This document shows, one piece after another, positions 3,198 to 61,728 of a DNA stretch of 64,000 bases; the stretch's first letter is position 1, and each line of letters opens with the position of its first letter. The notes beneath the pieces were generated by a model, which was not told the origin of the DNA, made no database searches, and saw nothing but the letters and a program-made list of their open reading frames with translations. Both the position numbers and the translations under genes were made by a program. The DNA is taken from the sequence record PP400779, one strand, 5' to 3'. This DNA is from Escherichia phage JM17.

Positions 3198-3560
3198 ATG
3201 AAATATCACGTATATGCGGATTTTGAAGCAAATCCTTCTAAAGACCCCGATTGTCGTTTGATACGCAGACCATTTGATTCAGCAGCTCAAGCCTGGGCCT
3301 GGATTAAAACTTGTACTCCTTCTTACACTTTCTTTGAAGTGGTAGACGATAACGGTGTTCTGCATCCAGAACCTACAGAAACTATTAATTTCCTTCTGTT
3401 TGCTGGTTATGACTGTTATCCTCTTGGTGGTATTGACGACCTTGTTGCTACAGGAAAAACTTTTGAAGCTCTTCGCGAAATTTATAAAAACGCGGAAGAA
3501 AATTTTGACTGGTATCATATTGTTGATGCTCATACCTTTGAAATGGTGGAACATTCATGA
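3198..3560 (+). CDS. hypothetical protein
   Basis: ORF with ATG 3198 two nt after the upstream stop; no motif recognised. Confidence 0.4.
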   Translation: MKYHVYADFEANPSKDPDCRLIRRPFDSAAQAWAWIKTCTPSYTFFEVVDDNGVLHPEPTETINFLLFAGYDCYPLGGIDDLVATGKTFEALREIYKNAEENFDWYHIVDAHTFEMVEHS

Positions 3561-4042: not shown

Positions 4043-4119
4043 CGAGGCATAGCTCAATTGTATAGAGCAACGGATTTCTAATCCGTAGGTTGAAGGTTAG
4101 AATCCTTCTGCCTCGACCA
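4043..4119 (+). tRNA. tRNA-Arg (anticodon UCU), CCA encoded
   Basis: acceptor CGAGGCA/TGCCTCG, D-stem GCTC/GAGC, anticodon stem ACGGA/TCCGT with loop TTTCTAA, T-arm GAAGG-TTAGAAT-CCTTC, discriminator A plus CCA. Confidence 0.85.
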
Positions 4120-4435
4120 AATAAGAAGCCGGGTCGCTACCGGTAAGTCGTCGGACTGATGTTCCCTGAGTAAGGACTGGTCTTAATAAATCTTTACGAT
4201 TTGTTAATATCCCCTTACATCACAGCAGAAACGGCGCACCGAATTATCGATTCGAGGAAATATCTTTGCCGTAAGCCGAGTAGCGTTTTTGACGGAACGT
4301 TCGGATATGGTCGAGATATGGCCTTTTAAAAATATTGAGTAGCGTCAACTGCTTAATAACCGGGTTCGAATCCCGGCGTTTCGTACAAACACTTGCCTTA
4401 GCAGGTGGGACCCCGACAAGGTTGCCGCAAGGCTT
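4120..4435 (+). ncRNA. non-coding region after the tRNAs with tRNA-like T-arm (CCGGG-TTCGAAT-CCCGG at 4360-4376); candidate stable RNA or decayed tRNA
   Basis: no credible ORF; T-loop motif present but no full cloverleaf could be folded by hand. Confidence 0.25.
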
Positions 4436-4466
4436 AGCCCCTTCCTTATGGTTGGGGCTTTTTGGC
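4436..4466 (+). terminator. rho-independent terminator, copy 1 of a hairpin repeated three times
   Basis: CCCCTTCCTTATGGTTGGGGCTTTTTGG. Confidence 0.6.
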
Positions 4467-4508
4467 ATAATAATAAATAGATAAGTTAATTAACTTAGGA
4501 AAAGCAAC

Positions 4509-4973
4509 ATGAAATCATACGCTGAATTTTTGACTGAACAATCTAGTTCAGATGTAAAAGCCGCTGCGATTGCAGCAATTCAAGCAGGTAAATATTCTTA
4601 CAAAGACGCCTCTGATGAAGAACGTTTCCGTTTTATTAGAGATTTTAAAGCCGAAGGTTTTACTAATGCTAATACTGTTAGCCGAGTTTTTAAAAGCCTA
4701 GCTGCATCAGGTGAATTGTTCCAGAAAGCTACAGGTAAAGCACCTGCGCCAAAAGCGGACCCTAAAGCAGCTCAAGAAAAAAATATCGCCAAAGGAATTA
4801 TTTCTAAGTATGAAGCAATTCTTAAAGAGCTTTTAGTAATCAAAACAGAAGGACAGAAACTGGCACGAGCACATAGCTTCAAAGATAATCCTCACGCTCA
4901 TAGCCTTGAGTATGTTGAAGATATCCAAAAACTTATTAAAGACCGTATCTGGTCTGCTAAACAAATTAAATAA
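4509..4973 (+). CDS. internal protein-like basic protein (leader MKSYAEFLTE)
   Basis: 154 aa, Ala/Lys-rich; CTS-like N-terminus. Confidence 0.5.
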   Translation: MKSYAEFLTEQSSSDVKAAAIAAIQAGKYSYKDASDEERFRFIRDFKAEGFTNANTVSRVFKSLAASGELFQKATGKAPAPKADPKAAQEKNIAKGIISKYEAILKELLVIKTEGQKLARAHSFKDNPHAHSLEYVEDIQKLIKDRIWSAKQIK

Positions 4974-4979
4974 TAGAAT

Positions 4980-5010
4980 GCCCCCTTCCTTATGGTTGGG
5001 GCTTTTTGGT
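4980..5010 (+). terminator. rho-independent terminator, copy 2
   Basis: same 28-nt hairpin plus T-run as 4436-4466. Confidence 0.6.
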
Positions 5011-5097
5011 ATCTAGGGCATAAAAATATTTCATAAAGATGTTTACTTCTTCCCTAGATGTGTTACTATAGACCTATAAAAACATGAGGAAAATATT

Positions 5098-5403
5098 ATG
5101 AGTCTTTATACTGAACTGAATAAAAAATCTGAAGAATCTGCTGAAACTATTTTTAAAAACGTGCAAAAGCGTATTTTAGAAAAGATGTATAACACTGCAG
5201 CTAAAGGTGAAAAATCTTGCCGGTTTCCGATTAGGTGTTCTTCAGATTTATGCGCAAATACTATTGAATGGCTGGAAAGTGAAGGTCTTACGGTAGAGAA
5301 AAACCCGGCGACTTCTATTGACAGCGAATCATATATTAGTATTTCTTGGGATAAACCACGTATGAATGAAGGACACTACAAGTTGTTAAGTTGGAAAAAT
5401 TAA
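5098..5403 (+). CDS. hypothetical protein
   Basis: ORF behind a GTTTAC...TACTAT promoter and GAGGAAAA SD. Confidence 0.4.
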   Translation: MSLYTELNKKSEESAETIFKNVQKRILEKMYNTAAKGEKSCRFPIRCSSDLCANTIEWLESEGLTVEKNPATSIDSESYISISWDKPRMNEGHYKLLSWKN

Positions 5404-5471
5404 AAATAATGATGTACAAGCACCAAGGATGGTGATACTATAGACTTATCAACTACAGAGGAGTAAACAAA

Positions 5472-5636
5472 ATGACTACTTTAATTATTTGGTTCGATGA
5501 AAATGAAGAAACATACTGTGTGAATATTGGTGAAAGTCCAATGCCTGAATTTGAATCCTCGGATAAAAACTCTGTTGTATCTTGGGCTGAAGGTTATAAA
5601 GCCGCTAAAGGTGACGTTGAAATAATTTACATCTAA
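5472..5636 (+). CDS. small hypothetical protein (54 aa)
   Basis: not in track (under 60 aa); ATG preceded by AGAGGAG and a TGTACA...TACTAT promoter. Confidence 0.3.
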   Translation: MTTLIIWFDENEETYCVNIGESPMPEFESSDKNSVVSWAEGYKAAKGDVEIIYI

Positions 5637-5683
5637 GTACGTTTATGTTATAGTAATCACATCAAATCAAGAGGAGAAACAAA

Positions 5684-5911
5684 ATGGCTACAGTTAGTAT
5701 TGATGTCGTTGATTATGAATACACTGAAGAAGTTATTCGCAACCGTCACCCTGAAGTTCGTATCGATTCAGTCCAAGATTCCAAGTTTTGGACAACTGAG
5801 CTTAATCTGAGCGGTCCTTATGAAGCTGTTAAGAAGTTCATGGTTGAAGAATACTGCGAAGGCATGCACCCCGAAGACACCAAGTTTTATGTCAATTTGA
5901 TTAAAAAATAA
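5684..5911 (+). CDS. hypothetical protein
   Basis: ORF with SD AGAGGAGAA. Confidence 0.4.
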   Translation: MATVSIDVVDYEYTEEVIRNRHPEVRIDSVQDSKFWTTELNLSGPYEAVKKFMVEEYCEGMHPEDTKFYVNLIKK

Positions 5912-5960
5912 TTTACAAACTCTTGAGAGCAGAGTATAATGCTCTCGTTGGATAATAAAC
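5912..5960 (+). repeat. PeSL-like promoter cassette, copy A of a duplicated ~48-bp element
   Basis: ATTTACAAACTCTTGAGAGCAGAGTATAATGCTCTC...GGATAATAAA; nearly identical copy at 33140-33188. Confidence 0.6.
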
Positions 5961-5981
5961 CACCAATTGAAAGGTAATAAT

Positions 5982-6575
5982 ATGAACACACTGAAGAAAC
6001 TTGTTGAATTCATCCGCACTAAACTGGGTACTGCTATGGCTAAAAATCTGACTGTCGAAGAACAGTATAACGCAGCTGCAGATAAGTTGATCACCCAAAT
6101 CAAAGAACTAAAAACGGCTTCTGTTAAATCTATTAATGAAGAAAAACGTATTCGCGAACTTGTTAATGAAAAGAACAAGCAAGCCGCTTCTAAGGAACGT
6201 GAAATTCGTAAGCTCCTGGCTGAAGGACAAGATGTTACTATGCATGCTAAGCTTGGTCTTCTGTATCGTCGAACCGCCGAACAACTTAATACAAAAGCTG
6301 ACGGGTATGCCGCTATGCGAATTGAAATTGCTCGTAAGGTGGTTGAACTTGATGATGCTCGTCAGAATCTGGCAATCAAACTCGAATACATTCGTGAAAC
6401 TCGAGCAGCCAATGCCCTTGGTATCTCTACGGCTGATGATGTAATTGAAATCGCTGCACTGACTAAGGTTGATATCGAAGACACTCTGACTCGTGTTGAA
6501 ACGTTCAATGGCACTCCAGCCGGCGTCGAAACCACTTCTGCTGATGTACAAGAATATATTAACTCTTTGAAATAA
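5982..6575 (+). CDS. coiled-coil protein, possibly PspA/IM30-like
   Basis: 198 aa, heptad-rich Lys/Glu/Ala composition; GAAAGG SD; family assignment tentative. Confidence 0.35.
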
Positions 6576-6584
6576 AATAATACG

Positions 6585-6608
6585 GAGGACTCCGGTCCTC
6601 CTTTTGGA
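6585..6608 (+). terminator. rho-independent terminator
   Basis: GGAGGAC-TCCG-GTCCTCC followed by TTTTGG. Confidence 0.55.
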
Positions 6609-6624
6609 TAATAAAGGAGTTAAC

Positions 6625-7041
6625 ATGCGAAACCAAAATAATGATATTGACTCAATGTTCGAAGAGTTCCGAGATAAGGTAAATCCACCTACGTCTTTAG
6701 TTGATTCATTACGATATGTTGCAACTGGACGTAAATGGTACTGGTCGTCTTCTTATGAGACCACCGAGAAAACGGCTAGCCATAGCAGAAAATCTTTATT
6801 AGCCCCAGGTATTATGATTCATGATATCGGAGCTATTGCTAAACTAGTTGCAGACCATGATATTAGATTCACTGATTTCGTTGCTCCTACATGGTCTGTT
6901 TGTTGTTTAAACACCGAATTGGAATATATCAGTGAACGTTCAGATGATTACATAGGCTTTAGAGACAAGCTTTTAAGGTCTAACATGTTTTATATTGATA
7001 CAGAAGTTCTAGTCAATAATAAAAATACTACTTCACTTTAA
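6625..7041 (+). CDS. hypothetical protein
   Basis: AAGGAG SD then ATG 6625. Confidence 0.4.
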   Translation: MRNQNNDIDSMFEEFRDKVNPPTSLVDSLRYVATGRKWYWSSSYETTEKTASHSRKSLLAPGIMIHDIGAIAKLVADHDIRFTDFVAPTWSVCCLNTELEYISERSDDYIGFRDKLLRSNMFYIDTEVLVNNKNTTSL

Positions 7042-7192
7042 TCGTCGATTCTGAAACTATGTATGAAGGCAAGCCTTTGCTTAAGAGAGTTGATGCTTTA
7101 AGTGCTATTGATGCGCTTTATGAAACTATGGTTGTTAGTCCTAATTTCACTAACAATTTAATCCTTGAGCAATTTATTAAGGAATGTAGAAA

Positions 7193-7498
7193 ATGAGTAA
7201 GATTATTGAAATTAAAGTACCAGAGTTTAATGATGCCAAATCCGCTTCAGATGCAATTTATAAACTTCTGAATCAAGCTGAACGTATCGAAGAAGAAGCA
7301 ACAAAGATCGCAGACCAATATGCCGTATCATTTTCTGTAGGTGATTATGGTAGCGGTCGTACTTATTATCCTAAGGGTGAAATCGTATCCCAGTGGATGA
7401 AAAATGAAATTGAAAATAATGGTGGCGATGTTAAGCGTGAAGGTGATGGTTACGTTATTACTGAAGGTGCTTGGGTTTCGTCTTCTGCGTTGTGCTAA
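7193..7498 (+). CDS. small protein, member 1 of tandem family ending GAWVSSSALC
   Basis: 101 aa; C-terminal G-W-V-S/A-S-S-x-x-C shared with the next two ORFs. Confidence 0.45.
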   Translation: MSKIIEIKVPEFNDAKSASDAIYKLLNQAERIEEEATKIADQYAVSFSVGDYGSGRTYYPKGEIVSQWMKNEIENNGGDVKREGDGYVITEGAWVSSSALC

Positions 7499-7507
7499 GG
7501 AATCATT

Positions 7508-7780
7508 ATGTCTAAAGAACAAACCGAACTGGCTGAAGCTGTAGCAAAAATCTATGCAGCTATTGAGGCTGCCAAAGAAATTGCTGATAAACAAAACACA
7601 ACATTCGATTTGTACCCAGCTTATGGTATGGGTGGAACCTATCATTCACCAGGACATCTTAAAGCCGATCTTGAACGTTGTACAAAAAACGGCTATGCTG
7701 AATGGGCTGACGTTTACCAATACGACTACAACCTGAGCCTCGAAACTGGTGGTTGGGTCGCATCTTCTCACACTTGCTAA
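7508..7780 (+). CDS. small protein, member 2 of tandem family ending GGWVASSHTC
   Basis: 90 aa; AAGGAA SD; conserved C-terminal motif. Confidence 0.45.
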   Translation: MSKEQTELAEAVAKIYAAIEAAKEIADKQNTTFDLYPAYGMGGTYHSPGHLKADLERCTKNGYAEWADVYQYDYNLSLETGGWVASSHTC

Positions 7781-7789
7781 GGAAACAAT

Positions 7790-7987
7790 ATGTCTCGTGA
7801 ATTAGATTGTGCTGTACGTACGGCAGTAGCTGCCCTGGAAAACCTGTTCCAAATTGCAACAGAAGAACGCGAAGAAGTTACATTATGGATTGAAGATAAC
7901 GCAGGTCTGAATCTCCAGAACGCAATCTCATTATCAAATAATAGTATTACTGTTCAAGGCTGGGTATCATCTAGTTATTCTTGCTAA
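7790..7987 (+). CDS. small protein, member 3 of tandem family ending QGWVSSSYSC
   Basis: 65 aa; AAGGAAA SD; conserved C-terminal motif. Confidence 0.45.
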   Translation: MSRELDCAVRTAVAALENLFQIATEEREEVTLWIEDNAGLNLQNAISLSNNSITVQGWVSSSYSC

Positions 7988-8049
7988 AACAGTTTACAAC
8001 AAGATAGGGCTATGTTATAGTAGTCCTATCAAATTAAATGGAGTCCACA

Positions 8050-8289
8050 ATGATTTATTACGAAAGTATTGGAACCAAAGTGGTTGCTAAAACTATTACT
8101 CGTGAAAAGTTTGCAAAGATATTCGATATGCGTTATAAAAAATCTGAACACAAAGGCATCCGATTCGAAGATGCGCACTGTACAATTTGCCCTTATAATG
8201 AAGACATAAACGGTACAATCGTTCCATTGGTAGAAGCTTCACATGATGACCTCTGGGATGAATATAATATCGCATGTCGTGAAATTTAA
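8050..8289 (+). CDS. hypothetical protein
   Basis: ATG 8050 after GGAG (alternative ATG 8038); Cys/His pairs present. Confidence 0.35.
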   Translation: MIYYESIGTKVVAKTITREKFAKIFDMRYKKSEHKGIRFEDAHCTICPYNEDINGTIVPLVEASHDDLWDEYNIACREI

Positions 8290-8317
8290 GTTAATGAATT
8301 AATCCGAGGAAAATATT

Positions 8318-9274
8318 ATGATGTTAGTTATTGGTTCTCGTGCACTTCACTATCACGGTCTTATTGATTCTAGCGCTATCAAAAATAGTGATTGGGACTT
8401 TATTGCGGACCAAGGTTCTTGGAATGCATTCAAAAATCAAATGATGGGTGTATATGTCCACCAAGATAACCCTGATGTCCAAGTTTTCAAATGCTTCCAT
8501 AATGGACGCGAAACTCATTTTGAAGCATATATTGTTCCGGCAATCACTAATGTCCGTGAATTAGTCGGTGAACTCACTCCTGAAGATTTCACGTCTTCTT
8601 ATGACCTTTTAAAATACGCCAAGAAAAATTTGACTAAAGACTGTTTGAACGGGTTTTACTGGGCAACTCCTGAGATATGTCTTGCAATTAAGATGTCTCA
8701 TCGTTTCAAGAAAAATAATCCATTCTTTTTAAAGACTATGAACCATATTCAGTATCTTCGTGGTAAAGGTGTTACACTGAACGATGAACTTACTGAAATT
8801 ATGCTGAAACGCCAGAAAGAAACCTTGAACTATGCTCACCCGGTTCTTGACACTTCTAAAAGTGCGTTCTTTAAAGATGACATCTATACATATGACCATG
8901 ATACTATTCATGAAGCCATTGCACTAACAGACCGTCCAGCGTATACATTTTATATGAAAGACGGTTCTGAAGTCATGACCTCACGAGAGAAGTTCGAATC
9001 GTTACCAGAAATGGTCAAATTGGCCGGTGTATATGAAGAATCATGTGTACTAGCATTAGAACGTTCTCAGATTCCTAATGACTTTAAAATTAACCCTGAA
9101 GCCAGTTTCATGATGGCATTGGAAAAGGTCTGTACAAGCATCACCTCCGGTTGGTTCCGTGAATACGCCTGGGAAAGCTACAGCAAAGTAGTAAGTATGT
9201 ACCAAAGTTTAGGACATGACGATTACGTCAAACGTTTCAAACAAAATTTCCATATGGTAAAACCTTTCAAATAA
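8318..9274 (+). CDS. hypothetical protein with nucleotidyltransferase-fold-like N-terminal motif
   Basis: 318 aa; VIGSRALHYHGL...SDWDF resembles the GS...DxD minimal NTase signature. Confidence 0.4.
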   Translation: MMLVIGSRALHYHGLIDSSAIKNSDWDFIADQGSWNAFKNQMMGVYVHQDNPDVQVFKCFHNGRETHFEAYIVPAITNVRELVGELTPEDFTSSYDLLKYAKKNLTKDCLNGFYWATPEICLAIKMSHRFKKNNPFFLKTMNHIQYLRGKGVTLNDELTEIMLKRQKETLNYAHPVLDTSKSAFFKDDIYTYDHDTIHEAIALTDRPAYTFYMKDGSEVMTSREKFESLPEMVKLAGVYEESCVLALERSQIPNDFKINPEASFMMALEKVCTSITSGWFREYAWESYSKVVSMYQSLGHDDYVKRFKQNFHMVKPFK

Positions 9275-9344
9275 TTTCGCAAAACTGTTTACACAATTAT
9301 AGGACTATGTTATAGTAGTCCTATTAAAACATGAGGAGAATATT

Positions 9345-9650
9345 ATGAAATTAGGCGAAACCAATCGAATCGGTCTTTTTACAATATTTGCATCACCTTT
9401 TTACGTAGCTCTTTCTGTTGCAGTATTACAAAAGGCTTACAGTATGGATGGTGTTCCTGGTTTTGTATTCTTATCACCGTTTTTATTATTCGTCGGAGCT
9501 TTGTTATTATATGCCACGACTAGTTTCGACCATAACGTTTGGGTTAATTATAAATGTAAATTGTCTGAAGAAGAACACGCAGAAGCTCGTAAAAAAGCTA
9601 TTGAATCTACCAATCTAGAAAATTTCATTAAAGAATGCCGAGGAAAATAA
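9345..9650 (+). CDS. small membrane protein
   Basis: two hydrophobic helices. Confidence 0.4.
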   Translation: MKLGETNRIGLFTIFASPFYVALSVAVLQKAYSMDGVPGFVFLSPFLLFVGALLLYATTSFDHNVWVNYKCKLSEEEHAEARKKAIESTNLENFIKECRGK

Positions 9651-9651
9651 T

Positions 9652-10338
9652 ATGAATAGTTCTAAAGTGTTTAATAGTCAAGCTCGTGCAGTAGGTGGTT
9701 TTGCTCATGCGATTAAAAACGACCAGATTAAAAACGAGCCTATGTTCTTTAACTGCGATTTGAATTTTGCTTTTGATAATGGCGGTCCAATTACTCGTAG
9801 CTTTATCCAAAATCTCCCTGACGATTGGAAAGACTCGGATGTAGTATTTGATTCACGAGTCCACATGCTGATGCCTGGTTGGTACCCTGCTATCCCAGGT
9901 TATCACCATGACGATGTACCACGCCCGGATATTCCGGTTGGTCAACACTTTATTACTGCAGGACAACCTGACTATGACAATCCTCGCTATTTGTCTGAAC
10001 ATATTCTTGGTCTTGTTAACGCTGATGTGTGTCCTACTCATTTTGCAACAGGAACTGCAGAGTTCAGTCAGATTCCTGATGGTGAACTTATCTATCGCCA
10101 GTGGCACAAAGAAGTCCTCGAAAAAATCGAAAAAGGCGAACTAGAGAAATGGGAAGCTCCAGATCGTACTCTTCTTCAGTTTGATTGGCAAACATGGCAC
10201 ACTGGTTCTCGTGCAATTAGTAACGGATGGCGTTGGTTCGGACGTGTATCTCGTAATACAGACCGAGTTAAAAAGATTACCAATGAAATTCGTGTCAATG
10301 CCCAAGTTTATCTGGAATTCCCTATGGAAGGCTGGTAA
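9652..10338 (+). CDS. hypothetical protein
   Basis: 228 aa; no motif recognised. Confidence 0.45.
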   Translation: MNSSKVFNSQARAVGGFAHAIKNDQIKNEPMFFNCDLNFAFDNGGPITRSFIQNLPDDWKDSDVVFDSRVHMLMPGWYPAIPGYHHDDVPRPDIPVGQHFITAGQPDYDNPRYLSEHILGLVNADVCPTHFATGTAEFSQIPDGELIYRQWHKEVLEKIEKGELEKWEAPDRTLLQFDWQTWHTGSRAISNGWRWFGRVSRNTDRVKKITNEIRVNAQVYLEFPMEGW

Positions 10339-10829
10339 TGATTAACAAAACATATTGGTCTAATATAGACGATGGCAACGAAGGTATTTCGTATTATTCA
10401 GTAGATTGGACAGGATGTCCATCCTACTTAGTGAAACATATTTGCCAAGAATTTAAAATCAACCAGCCAGCAGGTATTATCGTGAACAGATACATTAATG
10501 GATATCAACCTATCGATGAAGTAATACGAACAACTCAAGCTGAGCTTGAAAAGTTTTTCAATAAGTGCCAATGGATAACAGGATGGATTATATTTGTACC
10601 GTCAGTGTGGTTTTTTAGTACTAAAGTAAGTGCCTTTGCTATACTAGATATTATCGCTATCTTATTAGCATCTACTATCGTAAGTATAATTGGCGGTATA
10701 ATTGGTGGAGGTACTGTAGGCATCATTATTAATCTTGTTAAAAGTAGTTTACAAGAACGTAAAGACAAGATAAAGGCCAAGAATAATGAAGTTGAACGTT
10801 TTATTACCGAATGCAGGAATTTGAGATGA
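10338..10829 (+). CDS. membrane protein with glycine-zipper helix (IIGGIIGGGTVGIII)
   Basis: 163 aa; ATGA overlap with upstream ORF. Confidence 0.45.
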   Translation: MINKTYWSNIDDGNEGISYYSVDWTGCPSYLVKHICQEFKINQPAGIIVNRYINGYQPIDEVIRTTQAELEKFFNKCQWITGWIIFVPSVWFFSTKVSAFAILDIIAILLASTIVSIIGGIIGGGTVGIIINLVKSSLQERKDKIKAKNNEVERFITECRNLR

Positions 10830-11062
10830 GTATAGCAATTTACATTAAATCAGAATCATGTGATAGTTATCTGTACACATACGATAAAGATGTGTCAGAA
10901 GAAAAAATCAAAGACGATCTTAATATGGACCTTGATATGTTCTGTCCTATTGCAGATTACAAACTTGCGGTCTCTAATAGTGAAAGTCCATCTAAAGAAA
11001 CGCGCATTGAAGAATTTATATCTGAACTAATGGCCAAATCATGGGACCGAGATGATGAGTAA
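10826..11062 (+). CDS. hypothetical acidic protein
   Basis: ATGA overlap with upstream ORF. Confidence 0.4.
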   Translation: MSIAIYIKSESCDSYLYTYDKDVSEEKIKDDLNMDLDMFCPIADYKLAVSNSESPSKETRIEEFISELMAKSWDRDDE

Positions 11063-11510
11063 GAAAAATAAAGTGAAAGAACTATCAGCCGGTATTATTT
11101 TCCTTACCGAAGATAAAGAATTATTCATGGGGCGTGTAACTGGTTCTCGTCATAAAGGTGCATTAGCTCATCGGTGGGATATTCCTAAAGGCCGTGTCGA
11201 ACCTGGCGAATCTCCTATTGAAGCCGCTATTCGTGAATGCGAAGAAGAAACTGGGTTTACACAATATGACCCTGCCTTCCTGAAAGACCTAGGTGAACAT
11301 CATTACTCAGACAATAAGAATATTCATCTGTTCCTATATACCATCCCTGTAGAGCACGAGCAATTCAGAAACAGTGTTTGTAATTCCTATCATACATTCC
11401 CAGACGGACGACAGATTCCTGAATTTGATGCATTCGCTTTAATTAAACCTTCTCAATGGGAATATGTAATGGGCAAATCATTATATAAGGTGCTCACTAC
11501 CCTCCTATAA
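11052..11510 (+). CDS. nudE: Nudix hydrolase (T4 NudE-like)
   Basis: Nudix box GRVEPGESPIEAAIRECEEETG; located next to lysozyme gene e. Confidence 0.8.
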   Translation: MMSKKNKVKELSAGIIFLTEDKELFMGRVTGSRHKGALAHRWDIPKGRVEPGESPIEAAIRECEEETGFTQYDPAFLKDLGEHHYSDNKNIHLFLYTIPVEHEQFRNSVCNSYHTFPDGRQIPEFDAFALIKPSQWEYVMGKSLYKVLTTLL

Positions 11511-11512
11511 GT

Positions 11513-11544
11513 AATAAATACCTCCTATAAACGTGGGAGGTATT
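11513..11544 (+). promoter_or_regulatory. RBS-sequestering hairpin with embedded late-promoter-like AATAAATA upstream of gene e
   Basis: stem TACCTCC (11519-11525) / GGAGGTA (11536-11542) contains the SD GGAGG; ATG at 11545. Confidence 0.5.
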
Positions 11545-12033
11545 ATGAATATATTTGAAATGCTTCGTAATGACGAAGGTCTTAGACTGACTTTATACAA
11601 AGACACTGAAGGCTTTTGGACGATTGGCATAGGCCATTTGGTAACAAAGAACCCGTCTTTAGCCATAGCTAAAGCTGAACTTGACAGAATTATCGGACGT
11701 AAATGCAACGGTACAATTACCCTTGATGAGGCTGAAAAGCTATTTAATGAAGACGTTGATAAAGCCGTTCGCGGAATCTTGGGTAATGCTAAACTTAAAC
11801 CGGTATATGATTCTTTAGATGCGGTTCGTCGATGTGCATTGGTCAATATGGTCTTCCAAATGGGTGTAGCAGGCGTCGCCGGTTTTACTAATTCTCTTCG
11901 TATGCTTCAACAGAAACGTTGGGACGAAGCGGCAGTAAATCTAGCCCAATCTAAATGGTATCGTCAGACACCTAATCGCGCGAAACGCGTAATCTCAACA
12001 TTTAAAACAGGAACTTGGAAAGCGTATATATGA
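11545..12033 (+). CDS. e: lysozyme (endolysin, T4 gene e)
   Basis: [32 protein letters not shown]... near-identical to T4 lysozyme as recalled; catalytic E11/D20/T26 context present. Confidence 0.95.
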
Positions 12034-12311
12034 AAACATACAATGAATTTTTATCAGAATCTATTCTTAACGAAGCTACTGACACATTTGCAACTAAGCT
12101 AGGTGCAGCTTTGGTTGAAGCCGAAAGTCTATTAGCACGTATTTCTGAACTTGCTAGTAAGATAGATACTCGCAAATTTGAACGTACCAGCGATATCGCT
12201 AAGCTTGAAGCCTTGTTACGTATGTGCGATAAACCGGAAGAAATCGCTAAGAACGGCTCGCTGATGAAACAACGTCTTGAAAAATATATTTCAGGCGCTT
12301 CAGAAAAATAG
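12030..12311 (+). CDS. internal protein-like (leader [10 protein letters not shown])
   Basis: CTS-like N-terminus; ATGA overlap with the e stop codon. Confidence 0.5.
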
Positions 12312-12313
12312 TT

Positions 12314-12370
12314 GTTTACTTCCTCCAAGGGTTTTGATACTATACATTCATCAACTACTTGGAGGAAATT
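12314..12370 (+). promoter_or_regulatory. PeSL-like promoter: GTTTAC, TACTAT, arms TTCCTCCAAG / CTTGGAGGAA (anti-SD / SD)
   Basis: left arm lies in the promoter spacer; right arm carries the SD before ATG 12371. Confidence 0.5.
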
Positions 12371-12480
12371 ATGACCCGTCCGAAGCGTCCATTGCGATAA
12401 ATCAAGCACGCTTAGATGAAAAAATTGCTCAACGTCCGACTTGGTACAAATACTTTGGTAAATCAATTTACTAAGGAAAA

Positions 12481-12741
12481 ATGAAAATGTATCAAGAATT
12501 TATCGTTGAAGCAGATGCCAAAGGTCCTAAATTTAAAGTTAAAGCTTTCATTGGTGATGCGGAAGACTTTGGCTCATTAAAACGTAATGGGTATTCTTTC
12601 TTAGGTGGCAATGGTAAAGAAATCAACACCTATGCAAAACGTAGTGAAATTGCTTATGTTGTAGCAAGTCCTAAAGTAGATGTTGACGATATTGGATACG
12701 ATTTTAACAACTTCGGAATTATTTCTGGCGGTAAAGCTTAA
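12481..12741 (+). CDS. internal protein-like (leader MKMYQEFIVE)
   Basis: CTS-like N-terminus; AAGGAAAA SD. Confidence 0.5.
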   Translation: MKMYQEFIVEADAKGPKFKVKAFIGDAEDFGSLKRNGYSFLGGNGKEINTYAKRSEIAYVVASPKVDVDDIGYDFNNFGIISGGKA

Positions 12742-12806
12742 ATTGTTTACGCTTAAGTATTAATATGGTATATAATTACTCTATCAAAACAAACAAGGAA
12801 ACAAAA

Positions 12807-13109
12807 ATGAAAACATATCAAGAATTTATTACTGAAGCGCGAGTGAGTGCAGGTAAATTAGAAGCCGCTATAAATAAAAAGGCCCATTCATTTCATGATT
12901 TGTCCGATAAAGACCGTAAGAAACTTGTAAGCCTTTATATTGACAAAGAGCGTATTCTCGCTCTTCCTGGCGCTAATGAAGGTAAACAGGCCAAGCCTTT
13001 GAATGCTGTCGAAAAGAAAATTGATAACTTTGCTTCTAAATTCGGTATGTCTATGGATGACCTTCAGCAAGCGGCTATCGAAGCAGCTAAAGTAATTAAA
13101 GGTAAATAA
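12807..13109 (+). CDS. internal protein-like (leader MKTYQEFITE)
   Basis: CTS-like N-terminus; GTTTAC...TATAAT promoter and AAGGAAAC SD upstream. Confidence 0.55.
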   Translation: MKTYQEFITEARVSAGKLEAAINKKAHSFHDLSDKDRKKLVSLYIDKERILALPGANEGKQAKPLNAVEKKIDNFASKFGMSMDDLQQAAIEAAKVIKGK

Positions 13110-13220
13110 CAGTTTACTTCTCCTAGAATTGTGATAGTATATTCATAATTCTAGGAGGGGTAAATACAGAAATGGACAATTCATGTGCCACGGAATGGCC
13201 CAACATAAAAGAGAAACTAA

Positions 13221-13760
13221 ATGAGAACATTTTTAACTGGACCTTATCTATCCCTGATGAATGCTTTTACACACCATTCTGATGCTAGAGTAGAAGAAAT
13301 TTGTAAGAACGGTTACGTCCCACCATTTGAAGACGTACTCAAGCAGTACTGTACACTTCGTTTAGACGGCGGCAGACAATCAGGTAAATCGACCGCAGTA
13401 ACTAATTTTGCTGTTAATTGGCTGTATGATGGTGGAACAGTTATTGTTCTTTCTAATACTTCAGCTTATGCTAAAATTTCTGCTGGCAACATTAAAAAAG
13501 AATTTTCTCGTTATTCTAGCGATGATATTCGATTCCGTTTATTTACTGATTCTGTTCGTAGTTTTATTGGCAATGAAGGTTCTAAATTCCGTGGATTAAC
13601 GCTTTCTCGTATTCTGTACATAATTGACGAGCCTATTAAAGCTCCTGATATGGATAAGATTTACAATGTCCATATTAAAACAGTCCAACACTGTTGCAAA
13701 AGCAAATATTGCATCGGCGGTATTGCTCGTCCTCAATTTTTTGTGATTGGAATGCAATGA
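13221..13760 (+). CDS. P-loop NTPase, function unknown
   Basis: Walker A GGRQSGKST, Walker B-like ILYIIDEP; start uncertain because a 36-aa ORF (13172-13282) with a strong SD overlaps. Confidence 0.4.
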   Translation: MRTFLTGPYLSLMNAFTHHSDARVEEICKNGYVPPFEDVLKQYCTLRLDGGRQSGKSTAVTNFAVNWLYDGGTVIVLSNTSAYAKISAGNIKKEFSRYSSDDIRFRLFTDSVRSFIGNEGSKFRGLTLSRILYIIDEPIKAPDMDKIYNVHIKTVQHCCKSKYCIGGIARPQFFVIGMQ

Positions 13761-14065
13761 TGACCACTATTGAAGTTTTTGAGTATTGTTATAACAGCCC
13801 AGTATGCAATAAAAGGGCTCTTGTAGAAAATTATGAGATTTACCATTTTAAACCTAAACGATATCGTTTGACTAAAGGACCGTTCGCAGGGCAGCAGGTT
13901 CTTTGTACTGCTCCTAATGCACGGTTGATGACTAGTATTCCGCATTTCAAAATGGAATTTATTGATGGGCCATTTAAGGGATTAATCACTCAAAGTTTAA
14001 TGGCGTTTAATTCCGACCCATTTTTGATTAAAGAAAAAACTTGGATAAATTTATTTTCTAATTGA
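13757..14065 (+). CDS. hypothetical protein
   Basis: ATGA overlap with upstream ORF. Confidence 0.4.
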   Translation: MMTTIEVFEYCYNSPVCNKRALVENYEIYHFKPKRYRLTKGPFAGQQVLCTAPNARLMTSIPHFKMEFIDGPFKGLITQSLMAFNSDPFLIKEKTWINLFSN

Positions 14066-14071
14066 GGTTAT

Positions 14072-14434
14072 ATGAAAGCATATCAAATTCTTGAAGGTGC
14101 ACATAAAGGCACTATTTATTTTGAAGACGGTACTCAAGCCCGGATTATTGTCTCTAAGACTTTTAAAGAAGACTCTATTGTAGACCCGGAAATTTTCTAC
14201 GGTTTGAAGGCCCGTGAAATTGAAATTGAACATCAACCTAAAGTTAAAATTGAAGGTGGTCAACATCTGAACGTTAACGTTCTGCGTCGTGAAACTCTGG
14301 AAGATGCAGTTAAGCATCCGGAAAAATATCCGCAGCTGACCATCCGTGTATCTGGTTATGCAGTTCGCTTTAACTCTCTGACTCCGGAACAGCAGCGCGA
14401 CGTTATCGCTCGTACCTTTACTGAGAGTCTATAA
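14072..14434 (+). CDS. glycyl-radical cofactor protein (GrcA/YfiD-like C-terminal module) with phage-specific N-terminus
   Basis: C-terminal ~60 aa ([63 protein letters not shown]) match E. coli GrcA as recalled, glycyl radical motif RVSGY; codon usage in this segment is host-like. Confidence 0.7.
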
Positions 14435-14658
14435 TGGCTAAATTGATTATAGAAGGGTCTGAAGATGTTTTAAAATGTTTTGCCGCCTGGTTTAGTTGCT
14501 CAGGCGAGCAATCATTCACTGAAACATTTAGAATGGGTGATATTACTGGAAACTATCCGACAACTGATATCACTGTACGTGGATATGGTATTAATGAGCC
14601 TATCCAATTGGTCGAATATGACCTTGCCACTGATGAGGAAATTCCTTATGTCGATTGA
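14434..14658 (+). CDS. hypothetical protein
   Basis: TAATG overlap with upstream ORF. Confidence 0.4.
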   Translation: MAKLIIEGSEDVLKCFAAWFSCSGEQSFTETFRMGDITGNYPTTDITVRGYGINEPIQLVEYDLATDEEIPYVD

Positions 14659-14914
14659 AGACATCAAAGGCCACAAGCCGCATACCAATGATAAAATTGG
14701 TAAAGTGAACGCTATTAAAGATGCTGAAGTCCGTCTTGGATTGTTGTTTGATGCTCTGATTGAAGAAGCATATATCTTGAAAGAAAATGAAACAGAGCAA
14801 CAAACCAAAGAAGATATGGATGCAGTGCAGGCTCTTAAGTACGCTAAGCAACATCTAAAAGAAGCCAGCATGTGGGCATGTCGTGCAGTATTTCGACCTG
14901 AGGAAAAATACTAA
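14648..14914 (+). CDS. small all-alpha protein, possibly MazG/HisE-like NTP pyrophosphohydrolase
   Basis: 88 aa; acidic pattern LIEEAYIL...E..E; assignment tentative. Confidence 0.3.
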   Translation: MSIEDIKGHKPHTNDKIGKVNAIKDAEVRLGLLFDALIEEAYILKENETEQQTKEDMDAVQALKYAKQHLKEASMWACRAVFRPEEKY

Positions 14915-15129
14915 TGGCTTCTACTATTACTGGGTTATTGGACTTCCAAGAAAAGGTCAACAAAATTTGTAGTGAATACTTAAAGTATCTTGAAGAAGAC
15001 CTTGAAGATTGTAAGGAAGAAGGCGAAGAAGACTATGCTGATCAGCGTCGACGCCAAATCGAAGAGATGAGGCGTTTCGCCAATATAGTATCTAAAGAAT
15101 CTTGGGCTTTAACTCCATTTTATCAATAA
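14914..15129 (+). CDS. hypothetical acidic protein
   Basis: start overlaps upstream stop (TAATG). Confidence 0.4.
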   Translation: MASTITGLLDFQEKVNKICSEYLKYLEEDLEDCKEEGEEDYADQRRRQIEEMRRFANIVSKESWALTPFYQ

Positions 15130-15134
15130 AGTAG

Positions 15135-15190
15135 TTTACTTCTCCTCTAGTTGTGTTACTATAGACCTGTCAACTAGAGGAGAAATCAAA
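15135..15190 (+). promoter_or_regulatory. PeSL-like promoter: GTTTAC, TACTAT, 12-bp arms CTCCTCTAGTTG / CAACTAGAGGAG
   Basis: -35 at 15135-15140, -10 at 15157-15162; right arm contains the SD for ATG 15191. Confidence 0.5.
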
Positions 15191-15649
15191 ATGACTATCA
15201 ATTCAGACGTTTTTATCCGCCGTAATAAACTCCGTCGAATCTTTGAAACGGAGTTCCGCAAAATAAATGCCGGTATAAAAGATGCTGCAAAGTCTCTTGG
15301 ACTACCAGGCTTTCATATCAAGTATTCTCAACATCTCTTAGATCGTGCCATCCAGAGAGAAATAGATGAGAATTACGTTTTTGAATTATTTCATAAAGTA
15401 AAAAATCATGTTAAAGAAGTTGCAGAATTTTTATCAATGCCGGCACGTCCAGATGTTGATGAAGATTTTGTCGAAGGTGTCGAATATCGCCCAGGCCGTT
15501 TAGAAATAACTGATGGAAATCTTTGGTTAGGACTTACAGTTTGTCGCGAAAATCCAGCATTCAAAATGAAGACTCTTCAATGCAGAATGGCTATTATTAA
15601 CAGTAAACGACTACCAGGAAAAGCTTCTAAAGCAGTGATTAAAATCTAG
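15191..15649 (+). CDS. hypothetical protein
   Basis: 152 aa; no motif recognised. Confidence 0.45.
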   Translation: MTINSDVFIRRNKLRRIFETEFRKINAGIKDAAKSLGLPGFHIKYSQHLLDRAIQREIDENYVFELFHKVKNHVKEVAEFLSMPARPDVDEDFVEGVEYRPGRLEITDGNLWLGLTVCRENPAFKMKTLQCRMAIINSKRLPGKASKAVIKI

Positions 15650-15657
15650 AGGTAAAC

Positions 15658-16200
15658 ATGAGAAAAGCACTACTCGCTGGTCTATTTGCTCTTTCGTTAT
15701 CAGCATATAGCTCCGAGCATACTTTTAGTAATGTCCAACTCGATAACTTGAATTATGCTTATCAGTTCGGGGAACAGTTTTCTAAGGACGGAAAATTTAA
15801 AACGCATGAAAATATGCATAAGAAAGGACTTGGATACATAATGGCCGCAATACTATGGCAAGAATCATCTGCCGGTATTAATCTTAAAGATAAGAAAGGT
15901 CACCATGCGTATGGAATGTTCCAAAACTATCTACCAACAATGAGGGCAAGAATTAACCAGCTTGGTTATAATATGACTGATGCCCAAATTAAGAAAATGC
16001 TATCTAAGCGGTCTAATTCAGCCAGATGGGCTTATATCGAATTTTCTTATTGGTTAAATATACATAACGGGGATATAAGGAAAGCTATATCCTCATATAA
16101 TGCGGGATGGAAGACAAGTGCTGGAAGTAAATATGCTTCTGAAGTCCTAGAAAAGGCTAATTACCTTAAATCAAATAAACTACTGGAAATAAAAGAATGA
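15658..16200 (+). CDS. secreted lytic transglycosylase-like (SLT domain) protein
   Basis: signal peptide MRKALLAGLFALSLSAYS; SLT-like motifs ILWQESS, YGMFQ, SSYNAGW. Confidence 0.5.
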   Translation: MRKALLAGLFALSLSAYSSEHTFSNVQLDNLNYAYQFGEQFSKDGKFKTHENMHKKGLGYIMAAILWQESSAGINLKDKKGHHAYGMFQNYLPTMRARINQLGYNMTDAQIKKMLSKRSNSARWAYIEFSYWLNIHNGDIRKAISSYNAGWKTSAGSKYASEVLEKANYLKSNKLLEIKE

Positions 16201-16544
16201 CCAAAATGTTGGCTTTAATAGTTGGCTTGGTTTCATTTAACGCTCTTGCTAATACTACATATACTGATGTAACGGAGTATACAAACAGAACGGCGTCTGA
16301 TTATTGTGGTAAAAGTCGAGAGTGTAAAGTAGATTTTTCACAAAAATTGTTATATGCGTATAAAGACGGAGAAAAAGATGGGGCGTCTAGTAGGTTCAAG
16401 GCGTCTACTTTAATTAAAAGATACTATAAAAAATGGCAAATATTAGAATGCTCGGTGGCGGAACCTAAAGATAAGGCAGCATGCAATTCTATGGTGGACC
16501 GTCTAGTTGACTCTTATACTAGAGGACTTGCAGCAAGTGATTAA
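16197..16544 (+). CDS. secreted/periplasmic small protein
   Basis: signal peptide MTKMLALIVGLVSFNALA. Confidence 0.4.
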   Translation: MTKMLALIVGLVSFNALANTTYTDVTEYTNRTASDYCGKSRECKVDFSQKLLYAYKDGEKDGASSRFKASTLIKRYYKKWQILECSVAEPKDKAACNSMVDRLVDSYTRGLAASD

Positions 16545-17001
16545 AAACTATATCAAGGGCGATATTGTCGCCCTGTTTTCTAAAGGTAATAATATTGCTC
16601 ATGGGTGTAATTGTTTTCATACAATGGGCGCCGGTGTGGCAGGACAATTAGCAAAGGCTTATCCAAAAATTCTGGAAGCCGATAAACTTCAAACCGAATT
16701 CGGAGACGAGTCTAAACTCGGGACTTATTCGGTTTATGAAAAATATTTTAAGACCCATAAAGCTTATTGCTTTAATCTTTATACGCAGTTTGAGCCGGGA
16801 CCTAATTTTGAGTACTCTGCTTTAATGAATTGTATAATAGAATTAAATGAATTCGGAAAGAATAAGATAATAAAGCCTGTAATTTATATGCCAAGAATTG
16901 GTGCAGGTATTGGTGGTGGAAACTGGGATGTCATCGAAGAGATTTTAGATACATATTCCACTAAACTAGAAATTGTGATTGTTGATTGGGAACCTAAATG
17001 A
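16507..17001 (+). CDS. macro-domain protein (ADP-ribose binding / putative ADP-ribosyl hydrolase)
   Basis: GDIVALFSKGNNIAHGCNCFHTMGAGVAGQLAKAYP and IGAGIGGGNWDVI resemble macro-domain motifs; start uncertain (overlaps upstream ORF). Confidence 0.5.
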   Translation: MTLILEDLQQVIKNYIKGDIVALFSKGNNIAHGCNCFHTMGAGVAGQLAKAYPKILEADKLQTEFGDESKLGTYSVYEKYFKTHKAYCFNLYTQFEPGPNFEYSALMNCIIELNEFGKNKIIKPVIYMPRIGAGIGGGNWDVIEEILDTYSTKLEIVIVDWEPK

Positions 17002-17180
17002 AATTAACTAAAGAAGAGAAAGCTAAACTGTTCGAACTTATCCATGACCTATTGGATGAACAAGCAGCCACCAATGCGTATGATGAATATGCTCCTTTGA
17101 CAGACGAAGAATATCACGCATTGATGGAATCATTTGACAGGAAAGAACAAGAACTCATTGACTATGTGAATTCACTATAA
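16998..17180 (+). CDS. hypothetical acidic protein
   Basis: ATGA overlap. Confidence 0.4.
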   Translation: MKLTKEEKAKLFELIHDLLDEQAATNAYDEYAPLTDEEYHALMESFDRKEQELIDYVNSL

Positions 17181-17189
17181 GGGACTCTT

Positions 17190-17771
17190 ATGGCTAGTTT
17201 AATTTTTACCTATGCCGCTATGAACGCTGGTAAGTCTGCTTCATTACTTACTGCTGCACATAACTATAAAGAGCGTGGCATGGGTGTATTAGTTCTTAAA
17301 CCGGCTATTGATACTCGCGATTCAAAAGGTGAAATAGTCTCTCGTATTGGTATTCGTCAGGATGCCAATATAATTACAAAAGACATGGATATCTTTGAAT
17401 TTTATAAATGGGCTGCAGCACAAAAGGATATTCATTGTGTATTTGTTGACGAAGCTCAGTTCTTAACTACTGAAAAGGTGTATCAACTTAGTCGTATTGT
17501 TGACGTGTACAATGTGCCGGTAATGGCATATGGACTACGAACAGATTTTAAAGGTAATCTATTTGAAGGTTCTCAAGCATTAATGGCTATTGCCGATAAG
17601 CTTGTTGAACTTAAAGGTGTCTGTCATTGTGGTAAAAAGGCCACAATGGTAGCTAGAGTCACGGAAGACGGACTTCCAATTACAGATGGCAGTCAAATTG
17701 AAATTGGTGATACCGATAGATATGTGTCATTATGCCGGAAGCATTGGAATGATTTGACAGGGTTGTTATAA
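17190..17771 (+). CDS. tk: thymidine kinase
   Basis: P-loop FTYAAMNAGKSASLL; C-terminal CHCGKKA...LCRKH zinc ribbon; 193 aa. Confidence 0.9.
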   Translation: MASLIFTYAAMNAGKSASLLTAAHNYKERGMGVLVLKPAIDTRDSKGEIVSRIGIRQDANIITKDMDIFEFYKWAAAQKDIHCVFVDEAQFLTTEKVYQLSRIVDVYNVPVMAYGLRTDFKGNLFEGSQALMAIADKLVELKGVCHCGKKATMVARVTEDGLPITDGSQIEIGDTDRYVSLCRKHWNDLTGLL

Positions 17772-17798
17772 ATACTAATATCTAACCAAGAGGTATAT

Positions 17799-18011
17799 AT
17801 GCAGCAATTAAACGAAAGACAACTTCGTAATCTTACTGTAACCCAATTAGATGAAATCCGAAGAGAATTAGGACATTCTATTTCTCATTTAAACGAGGAT
17901 ATCCGTCAAACTGGTTCTAAAGCTGATTATACACGCAAACGCAAGCTGGAAAAATACCTCACAGATGTTAAGGCCGTCCAAAGGCGAAAAATAAATACTG
18001 GCCAAAATTAA
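17799..18011 (+). CDS. hypothetical basic protein
   Basis: ORF with SD AAGAGG. Confidence 0.4.
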
Positions 18012-18023
18012 CAGGAGGCCTAT

Positions 18024-18326
18024 ATGGCCTTAAGAGCGATAGCTGTCATAGCGATGCTGGGGTTTTTTGCAGCAACAACTCCTATCGTTGGTACTGCACA
18101 TATCGACCCATATTTTGATAACTTTATGGAATCAGGGATTAAAAACGTATATACTTTGTTTGAAATTCAAAATGTTGAGAATTCTGAAAAATTCTATAAG
18201 TATATGGCAAAGCATTACAAAAATAGCCCCTGTGATGATGCATTTGAATGTCATGAACAAGGCGTAAAAACTGCCAGACAATTTGCTGAGTTCATGAAAA
18301 TAAAATTAGAGCCTACATCTATCTAA
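18024..18326 (+). CDS. secreted small protein
   Basis: N-terminal signal-like hydrophobic segment. Confidence 0.4.
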   Translation: MALRAIAVIAMLGFFAATTPIVGTAHIDPYFDNFMESGIKNVYTLFEIQNVENSEKFYKYMAKHYKNSPCDDAFECHEQGVKTARQFAEFMKIKLEPTSI

Positions 18327-18332
18327 TTTACT

Positions 18333-18363
18333 AGCCCCTTCCTTATGGTTGGGGCTTTTTGGC
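18333..18363 (+). terminator. rho-independent terminator, copy 3
   Basis: same hairpin as 4436 and 4980. Confidence 0.6.
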
Positions 18364-18427
18364 ATCTATCAGTTTACTTCTCCTCAGGTTGTGTTATAGT
18401 AGTCCTTACTTACTAGAGGAGAACGTT

Positions 18428-33139: not shown

Positions 33140-33188
33140 ATTTACAAACTCTTGAGAGCAGAGTATAATGCTCTCATTGGATAATAAA
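33140..33188 (+). repeat. PeSL-like promoter cassette, copy B of the duplicated ~48-bp element
   Basis: identical to 5912-5960 except one base (CTCTCATTGG versus CTCTCGTTGG). Confidence 0.6.
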
Positions 33189-35220: not shown

Positions 35221-35394
35221 ATGACGAACGACCTGACCTCTGAAAATTTCGATAAAATCCGTAAAGGCAAAGCAGAAAGAATGAGACGTTTTAAAGAGTC
35301 TTACGATAAAGCTAAAGCCGAAGGAACTATTACATACAAGCCCATTCGATTTAAAAGTTCAAATGAGCCTCTGTACGGTGTACTATGTGGATAG
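35221..35394 (+). CDS. small hypothetical basic protein (57 aa)
   Basis: not in track; followed directly by a terminator. Confidence 0.3.
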   Translation: MTNDLTSENFDKIRKGKAERMRRFKESYDKAKAEGTITYKPIRFKSSNEPLYGVLCG

Positions 35395-35418
35395 GAACTC
35401 TTCGGAGTTCCTTTTTTG
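35394..35418 (+). terminator. rho-independent terminator
   Basis: GGAACTC-TTCG-GAGTTCC followed by TTTTTTG. Confidence 0.6.
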
Positions 35419-61634: not shown

Positions 61635-61661
61635 GGAATCCTTCGGGATTCCTTTTTTTTT
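61635..61661 (+). terminator. rho-independent terminator
   Basis: GGAATCC-TTCG-GGATTCC followed by T9. Confidence 0.65.
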
Positions 61662-61728
61662 GTTTCTACAGTTTACAACCACTAAAAACTGTGTTAAGAT
61701 ATTTTTACTTACTCAAGAGGAGAACAAT

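Follow-up and report, generated by a model that had tools for sequence, protein, structure and literature searches.

The question raised by this locus is why one compact terminator-like hairpin should be present, base for base, at three intergenic sites of a single phage genome, and whether it does anything besides ending transcription. The locus lies in a 64,000-nucleotide (nt) stretch of Escherichia phage JM17 (sequence record PP400779), and "the window" refers to this whole stretch. Our data indicate that the hairpin is probably (roughly 0.75) a terminator or attenuator that doubles as a portable piece of homology, through which gene cassettes are shuffled and the copies convert one another. 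The comparisons that led to this reading cover T4, about 17 relatives from GenBank, and 11 loci from IMG/VR, which together gave 54 hairpin instances. The IMG/VR loci came from protein-anchored searches that returned 8 and 3 loci, so that most comparisons were made with GenBank phage records. A degenerate structural pattern run against IMG/VR matched at least 120 unrelated phage terminators and was uninformative.

Identity and fold of the repeated hairpin

The 28-mer CCCCTTCCTTATGGTTGGGGCTTTTTGG occurs in the window as three zero-mismatch copies on the + strand, at positions 4438-4465, 4982-5009, and 18335-18362. No fourth site was found in the window when up to 3 mismatches were allowed, and a structure-based pattern, GCCCCNNCCNNNNGGNNGGGGC, searched with at most 1 mismatch, returned the same three sites and nothing else. 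The 28-mer was matched 0 times in 100 dinucleotide-preserving shuffles. The triplicate is real and non-random, as none is expected by chance. The initial annotation, which had reported three identical copies, was right in this respect, as realignment gave 0 mismatches over 28 nt at all three sites; the starts that it gave (4436, 4980, and 18333) are each 2 nt too low. Beyond the common core, copies 1 and 3 have 33 nt in common (AGCCCC...GGCAT), while copies 2 and 3 have the 28-mer in common, followed by one mismatch and then ATCTA. Copy 2 has one additional C at the 5′ end of its stem (GCCCCC).

The lengths of homopolymer runs vary within the hairpin element. Copy 2 of the window (4980-4985) has CCCCC in place of the CCCC found in all relatives, and the best match to this site in the phage records is 98.8%. 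At site 1 of phage TH58 (about 16246-16255), T10 is found in place of T5.

An inverted repeat in several identical copies may also be a small mobile element, autonomous or non-autonomous, of a kind similar to miniature inverted-repeat transposable elements (MITEs) or associated with homing, that inserts at new sites. The relatives examined have at most 3-4 copies per genome, however, and these always occupy the same intergenic joints, which are orthologous. No flanking duplication is common to the three copies, and no transposase or homing endonuclease was seen among the adjacent open reading frames (ORFs) that were scanned. The idea of a MITE or transposon was rejected on the basis of the missing target duplications, the orthologous sites, and the low copy number, and a mobile element of this kind is hardly credible as the source of the repeat.

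The RNA of each copy is predicted to fold as GCCCC/UU/CC-UUAU-GG/UU/GGGGC, with 7 base pairs in all (5+2, separated by a 2x2 U.U internal loop) and a free energy of -13.7 kcal/mol, followed by U5. On the opposite strand there is no T-run after the hairpin, and the element is therefore directional. The internal loop hid all three copies from a simple terminator scan, and a custom RNAfold-based scan placed them among the few compact, strong sites in the window that combine a hairpin with a T-run. The features of an intrinsic terminator are present, namely a G+C-rich hairpin, a U-run on the transcribed strand, and a gene end just upstream in the same orientation. Copy 1 begins 52 nt 3′ of the homolog of the T4 small RNA rnaC, copy 2 begins 8 nt after the stop codon of a 154-amino-acid (aa) reading frame (ORF154), and copy 3 begins 8 nt after the stop codon of the lysis inhibition gene rI. 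In addition, the orthologs of copies 2 and 3 are annotated as terminators in phage SA79RD (WebGeSTer, TransTermHP), and the ortholog of copy 2 is annotated as a rho-independent terminator in KAW3E185 (ARNOLD).

Copy 1 also has an ortholog in T4, where a hairpin is located about 60 nt after rnaC, downstream of the tRNA-rnaD-rnaC cluster. The two have the same upstream trailer, stem ends, T5GG, and position. They differ in that the T4 hairpin has a perfect 9-base-pair (bp) stem closed by a GAAA tetraloop, with a predicted free energy of -18.2 kcal/mol compared to -13.7 kcal/mol for copy 1; the positions of the internal loop hold GA in T4, so that G.U and A-U pairs complete the stem. With the strand, the gene-end position, the terminator calls in relatives, and the T4 ortholog taken together, the terminator reading of the initial annotation is well supported as a prediction, and we infer that each copy acts as a factor-independent terminator or attenuator for rightward (+ strand) transcription.

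Loop variants and gene cassettes at the hairpin joints

Across the 54 instances, the family consensus is GCCCC-NN-CC-NNNN-GG-TT-GGGGC-T(5-10). The 11 variants differ mainly in the loop (GAAA, AAAA, TTAC, and TTAT) and in the 5′ bases of the internal loop, and stem changes are limited to G-U wobble and a single compensatory flip of C-G to G-C (GGCCC...GGGCC). The loops found at the three sites of individual phages are listed in Table 1.

Table 1. Loop sequences of the hairpin at the three orthologous sites.
Phage	Site 1	Site 2	Site 3
Window (JM17)	TTAT	TTAT	TTAT
KAW3E185	TTAC	TTAC	GAAA
SA79RD	GAAA + GGTC	TTAT	TTAT
mogra	30-nt deletion	TTAC	GAAA + GGTC
BEU50	GAAA	TTAT	GAAA
EP02SG	GAAA	TTAC	TTAT
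F31	GAAA	TTAT	TTAT
TH58	GAAA	TTAC	GAAA (two copies)

Among the relatives read, only the phage of the window has TTAT at all three sites. The site-1 loop is GAAA in every sampled relative with an intact site-1 hairpin except KAW3E185, in which the TTAC loop is the same as that of its own site 2. Site 1 of the window differs from nearly all of its orthologs at three adjacent loop bases, yet it is the same as sites 2 and 3 of its own genome. In a search of 50,697 phage records, no full-length match to this site exceeded 97.5% (KAW3E185), the common form matched at 93.8%, and site 3 (81 nt) was identical in 37 phage records. Other variants are found at more than one site as well: SA79RD has the rare GGTC variant at site 1 and mogra has it at site 3, and the flipped-pair variant (GGCCC..GGGCC) is present in both copies of L129. 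The explanation that best fits these loop patterns is that short-patch gene conversion acted between copies and that ordinary allelic recombination among phages came afterwards. Such copying of loop variants between sites would account for the identity of all three copies in this phage.

Alternatively, the copies may be ordinary terminators that have remained identical only by common descent and purifying selection, with no role in recombination. The hairpin is kept at orthologous sites across Tequatrovirus, Mosigvirus, and Gaprivervirus, and its stem pairing is maintained, both of which are in keeping with this explanation. The freely varying loops, however, imply that the sequence is not fixed by selection, and the resemblance of site 1 of the window to its paralogs over its orthologs is at odds with descent alone. 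This explanation also leaves aside the direct hairpin repeats that precisely bound two cassette insertions or deletions, described below. Overall, we regard it as unlikely.

The first cassette is located between copies 1 and 2. When window positions 4200-5300 were searched by BLAST against 817 phage records, the alignment ends clustered at the 3′ edge of copy 1 (query positions 264-269; T4, T6, RB3, and others), with a second cluster at the 3′ edge of copy 2 (query positions 811-818; many Tequatroviruses). ORF154 is absent from T4, T6, RB3, and phiEC1, with breakpoints at the hairpin. The tk-tRNA region examined in T4 contains a single hairpin, which is flanked upstream by site-1-type sequence (94-95%) and downstream by site-2-type sequence (87-94%) when compared to phages that carry ORF154. 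Relative to these phages, T4 lacks exactly one unit of 535-555 bp that consists of ORF154 and one hairpin. The Mosigvirus phiEC1 has the same short arrangement as T4. In TH12, MRostami-2023e, and FL18, the place of ORF154 is taken by a 208-aa member of phrog_2280 that ends in a different (UUCG) hairpin. A reading of the TH12 locus as a swap for an unrelated gene was dropped because the 208-aa ORF and ORF154 are both members of phrog_2280.

The second cassette is located at site 3, where FL18 and TH58 have a 624-bp insertion that consists of a 185-aa DUF7338 ORF between two identical hairpin copies. The window matches these phages upstream of the first copy (96%) and downstream of the second (92%). 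Homologs of this ORF (75-77% identity) immediately follow the rnaC hairpin in Gaprivervirus RZ; in L126 and L129 they follow ORF154, and there hairpin copies of the GGCCC type flank a two-gene block. Judged by these alignments, the hairpin joint that holds this cargo differs from phage to phage. At their upstream edge, these cassettes usually have an exact copy of the T4 late-promoter octamer TATAAATA that overlaps the T-run. The DUF7338 ORF (FL18 16651-17208) is widespread. Its T4-like carriers are phages of Escherichia, Klebsiella, Enterobacter, and Cronobacter, and Felixounaviruses have it at about 60% identity, which suggests exchange across phage families.

The tRNA-e-tk-rI region as a whole is rich in insertions and deletions between relatives of 96-99% identity, which align in 2-10 BLAST pieces. 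The initial annotation had proposed that the hairpin marks a recombination hot spot or a mobile regulatory module that complements the promoter cassettes. The comparative data support a hot spot, as homology breakpoints, two cassette insertions or deletions, and the exchange of loop variants all map to the hairpin. The notion of a mobile module applies to the ORF cassettes that carry a hairpin copy, which do move, and not to the hairpin itself, which is not autonomous (at most 4 copies per genome, fixed orthologous joints, and no target-site duplication). Likewise, copies 2 and 3 do complement early promoters, which follow their T-runs at distances of 33 and 11 nt, respectively, and copy 1 does not.

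Relation to known cassette joints and proposed mechanism

The closest known elements are the promoter-early stem-loops (PeSLs), composite cassettes of an early promoter and a stem-loop in the hyperplastic regions of T4-type phages (Arbiol et al. 2010, PMC2839356; Comeau et al. 2014, PMC4122927). The terminator activity of PeSLs was tested with a lacZ reporter, and ORF insertions, deletions, and replacements have been linked to them, as have mini-circles detected by inverse polymerase chain reaction (PMC2839356, PMC4122927). Copies 2 and 3 have the same layout, an intergenic stem-loop followed by an early promoter (GTTTAC) and then by a GAGG Shine-Dalgarno sequence and ATG. The element is repeated in the genome and is located in a hyperplastic region of small ORFs, and in close relatives it bounds ORF insertions, deletions, and replacements (the ORF154 unit, the DUF7338 unit, and the exchange of ORF154 for the 208-aa ORF). 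At the sequence level, copies 2 and 3 therefore qualify as PeSLs.

Three differences set the present element apart. Its stem is GCCCC...GGGGC with an internal loop, compared to the G-tract-loop-C-tract of RB49 and phi1 and the AGNA...TCNT of PST and T4. The recombining homology appears to be mainly the hairpin itself. Lastly, copy 1 has, as do the cassettes at their upstream junctions, a late-promoter box, either TATAAATA or the octamer AATAAATA, which differs from it by one mismatch, in place of an early promoter. Among the 54 hairpin instances, the downstream element is an early promoter in 26, an exact TATAAATA in 11, and AATAAATA in 9.

In the mechanism that we propose, the hairpin would stop or attenuate transcription of the upstream unit, and transcription would resume a few bases on, from the late-promoter-like box in the case of copy 1 and from T4-type early promoters in the case of copies 2 and 3. 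The combination of a terminator with a downstream promoter would insulate the transcription of each ORF cassette. In the DNA, the repeat of 30-35 nt, which promoter similarity extends at copies 2 and 3, would suffice for T4-type recombination, for which a homology requirement of <50 bp is cited by Arbiol et al. (PMC2839356). Because so little homology is needed and the same hairpin is present at several joints, each copy could serve as a patch of portable homology. An unequal exchange that pairs two copies, or a copy with a cassette that carries one, would delete or insert the intervening ORF together with one hairpin, while short-patch gene conversion would carry loop variants from site to site and homogenise the copies.

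The recombination pathway itself is probably general homologous recombination, with no dedicated enzyme. The boundaries of the RZ cassette have only GGGCTTTTTTATA in common and the second hairpin is a different one, which favours plain homology. The hairpin could instead be the site of a dedicated factor, either a DNA recombinase or nuclease that acts on it as on an attC site or a sequence-specific factor that binds or processes RNA. Arbiol et al. speculated about a DNA-binding protein that targets GGGG...CCCC stems and cited T4 deletions that end at GGGC/GCCC motifs (PMC2839356). Moreover, the cassettes resemble those of integrons, being promoter-poor ORFs that each bring one imperfect inverted repeat and that are located at more than one site with such a repeat. 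The hairpin repeat differs from attC, however, in that it doubles as a terminator and that exchange is apparently driven by homology. No integrase or other recombinase was identified among the ORFs adjoining the copies, although the window was not scanned for integrases, and the cassette ORFs (phrog_2280, DUF7338) are of unknown function and are not nucleases. The RZ boundaries likewise speak for homology over site specificity, and the bases of the loop and internal loop are variable. A dedicated factor is thus quite improbable. The more specific idea that the hairpin is the recognition structure of an active integron-like capture system in Tevenvirinae, in which a phage factor moves units of late promoter, ORF, and hairpin, is more doubtful still. 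In such a system, a structure-specific nuclease, for example, would act on an extruded cruciform and promote excision and integration of the unit. If true, it would explain the presence of the DUF7338 cassette at three different hairpin joints.

Several points weigh against the combined role of the hairpin as terminator and recombining homology. With a short U-run of 5 U before GG, and with the 2x2 U.U internal loop in the stem, termination may be partial. Across variants, the paired positions show two wobble changes and a single compensatory flip from C-G to G-C, with the remaining changes in loops, and this count is partly circular as the variants were selected because they pair. A literature search for 3′-end mapping, Term-seq, or reporter results in T4-like phages gave nothing usable for these sites. 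Selection against disrupted genes would in part place breakpoints at gene boundaries in any case. Base-by-base reading covered only about 20 relatives, too few to fix the direction or the number of conversion events. Finally, copy 1 has no early promoter and is an analog of PeSLs and not a PeSL in the strict sense.

Genomic setting and significance

Escherichia and Shigella phages of the genus Mosigvirus (T4-like, RB69 group) match the window at 96-99% identity. All genes within 1-19 kb are on the + strand, in the same direction as the hairpins. The features around the three copies are listed in Table 2.

Table 2. Features at and around the three hairpin copies (window coordinates).
Feature	Position	Strand	Description and basis
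rnaD homolog (T4 small RNA)	about 4121-4240	+	alignment with T4 annotation
rnaC homolog (species 1 RNA)	4248..4385	+	alignment with T4 annotation
CCCCGACAAGGTTG	4411..4424	+	degenerate half-copy of T4-type hairpin, upstream of copy 1; sequence inspection
Copy 1	4437..4465	+	hairpin GCCCC-TT-CC-TTAT-GG-TT-GGGGC, then T5GG; exact match, fold, T4 ortholog
AATAAATA	4472..4479	+	late-promoter-like octamer just 3′ of copy 1
ORF154	4509..4973	+	phrog_2280, function unknown; cassette between copies 1 and 2
Copy 2	4981..5009	+	same hairpin with extra 5′ C, then T5GG; terminator annotation at orthologous site in SA79RD and KAW3E185
Early promoter, T4 type	5041..5069	+	GTTTAC ... TACTAT, past copy 2; repeat families D2, D3, D5
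rI, lysis inhibition	18024..18326	+	phrog_1246, E = 3e-30; annotation in relatives
Copy 3	18334..18362	+	same hairpin, then T5GG; terminator annotation at orthologous site in SA79RD
Early promoter, T4 type	18372..18400	+	GTTTAC ... TATAGT, past copy 3; repeat family D3; early-promoter annotation at orthologous SA79RD site

Upstream of copy 1 are tRNA-Met and tRNA-Arg, followed by the rnaD and rnaC homologs, and copy 1 is predicted to close the primary transcript of this tRNA-rnaD-rnaC unit. Rfam searched at gathering thresholds returned the two tRNAs only, with no family match for rnaC, rnaD, or the hairpin. The octamer AATAAATA after copy 1 is a putative active promoter, and the promoters after copies 2 and 3 belong to a common promoter repeat family (D3). 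In mogra (3230-3260), 30 nt were lost between the GGTTG of CCCCGACAAGGTTG and the GGTTG of the hairpin, and the resulting fused hairpin at site 1 is weaker (-10.5 kcal/mol) and is followed by T7. A further insertion or deletion in the tRNA region concerns a 345-nt RB69ORF150c-like ORF, which is found between tRNA-Arg and rnaD in mogra, SA79RD, and KAW3E185 (2602-2946 in mogra, 81-425 in locus L123) and is absent from the window (4119-4125).

ORF154 has no Pfam match. Its first residues, MKSYAEFLTE (4509-4538), resemble the MKTYQEFI... starts of four other small ORFs (2305, 2678, 12481, and 12807; repeat family D11), and the starts of this family look like the leaders that target internal head proteins to the capsid. 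ORF154 may thus be a packaged internal protein. Comparable in this respect are the internal protein (IP) loci of T-even phages, where, according to the summaries of Repoila et al. 1994 in PMC2839356 and PMC4122927, variable small genes replace one another while the promoter and stem-loop that flank them are conserved; the resemblance of the ORF154 start to the IP leader MKTYQEFI is a putative one, and ORF154 is a candidate internal protein.

Other repeated elements are present in the window as well. A 49-nt promoter-like sequence (ATTTACA...TATAAT and a palindrome) occurs twice, at 5911-5959 and 33140-33188, with 98% identity at a distance of 27 kb. Two similar hairpins with UUCG tetraloops, GGAACTC-TTCG-GAGTTCC at 35394-35411 and GGAATCC-TTCG-GGATTCC at 61635-61652, are each followed by a T-run. 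An early promoter at 61671 follows the second of these, which makes it an additional PeSL-like joint.

In summary, the cassette joints at the hairpin fit the PeSL kind, a process already described for T4-type phages, and only some of the details are somewhat new, namely the lineage-specific homogenisation of the copies and the cassette joints of late-promoter type. These details amount to a modest extension of the PeSL model in two respects: the terminator itself can be the homology, and cassettes that enter at the hairpin start with a late-promoter box and not with an early promoter. The current view of phage genome evolution is unchanged by this finding. It does provide a base-resolved example of how accessory genes are reshuffled in T4-like phages, with one terminator hairpin as the common joint, to which two independent cassette polymorphisms and several inter-site conversions can be traced across Tequatrovirus, Mosigvirus, and Gaprivervirus. 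For therapeutic Mosigvirus phages, the repeats would be predictable sites of spontaneous deletion or gene gain, and they would also be convenient landing pads for engineering.

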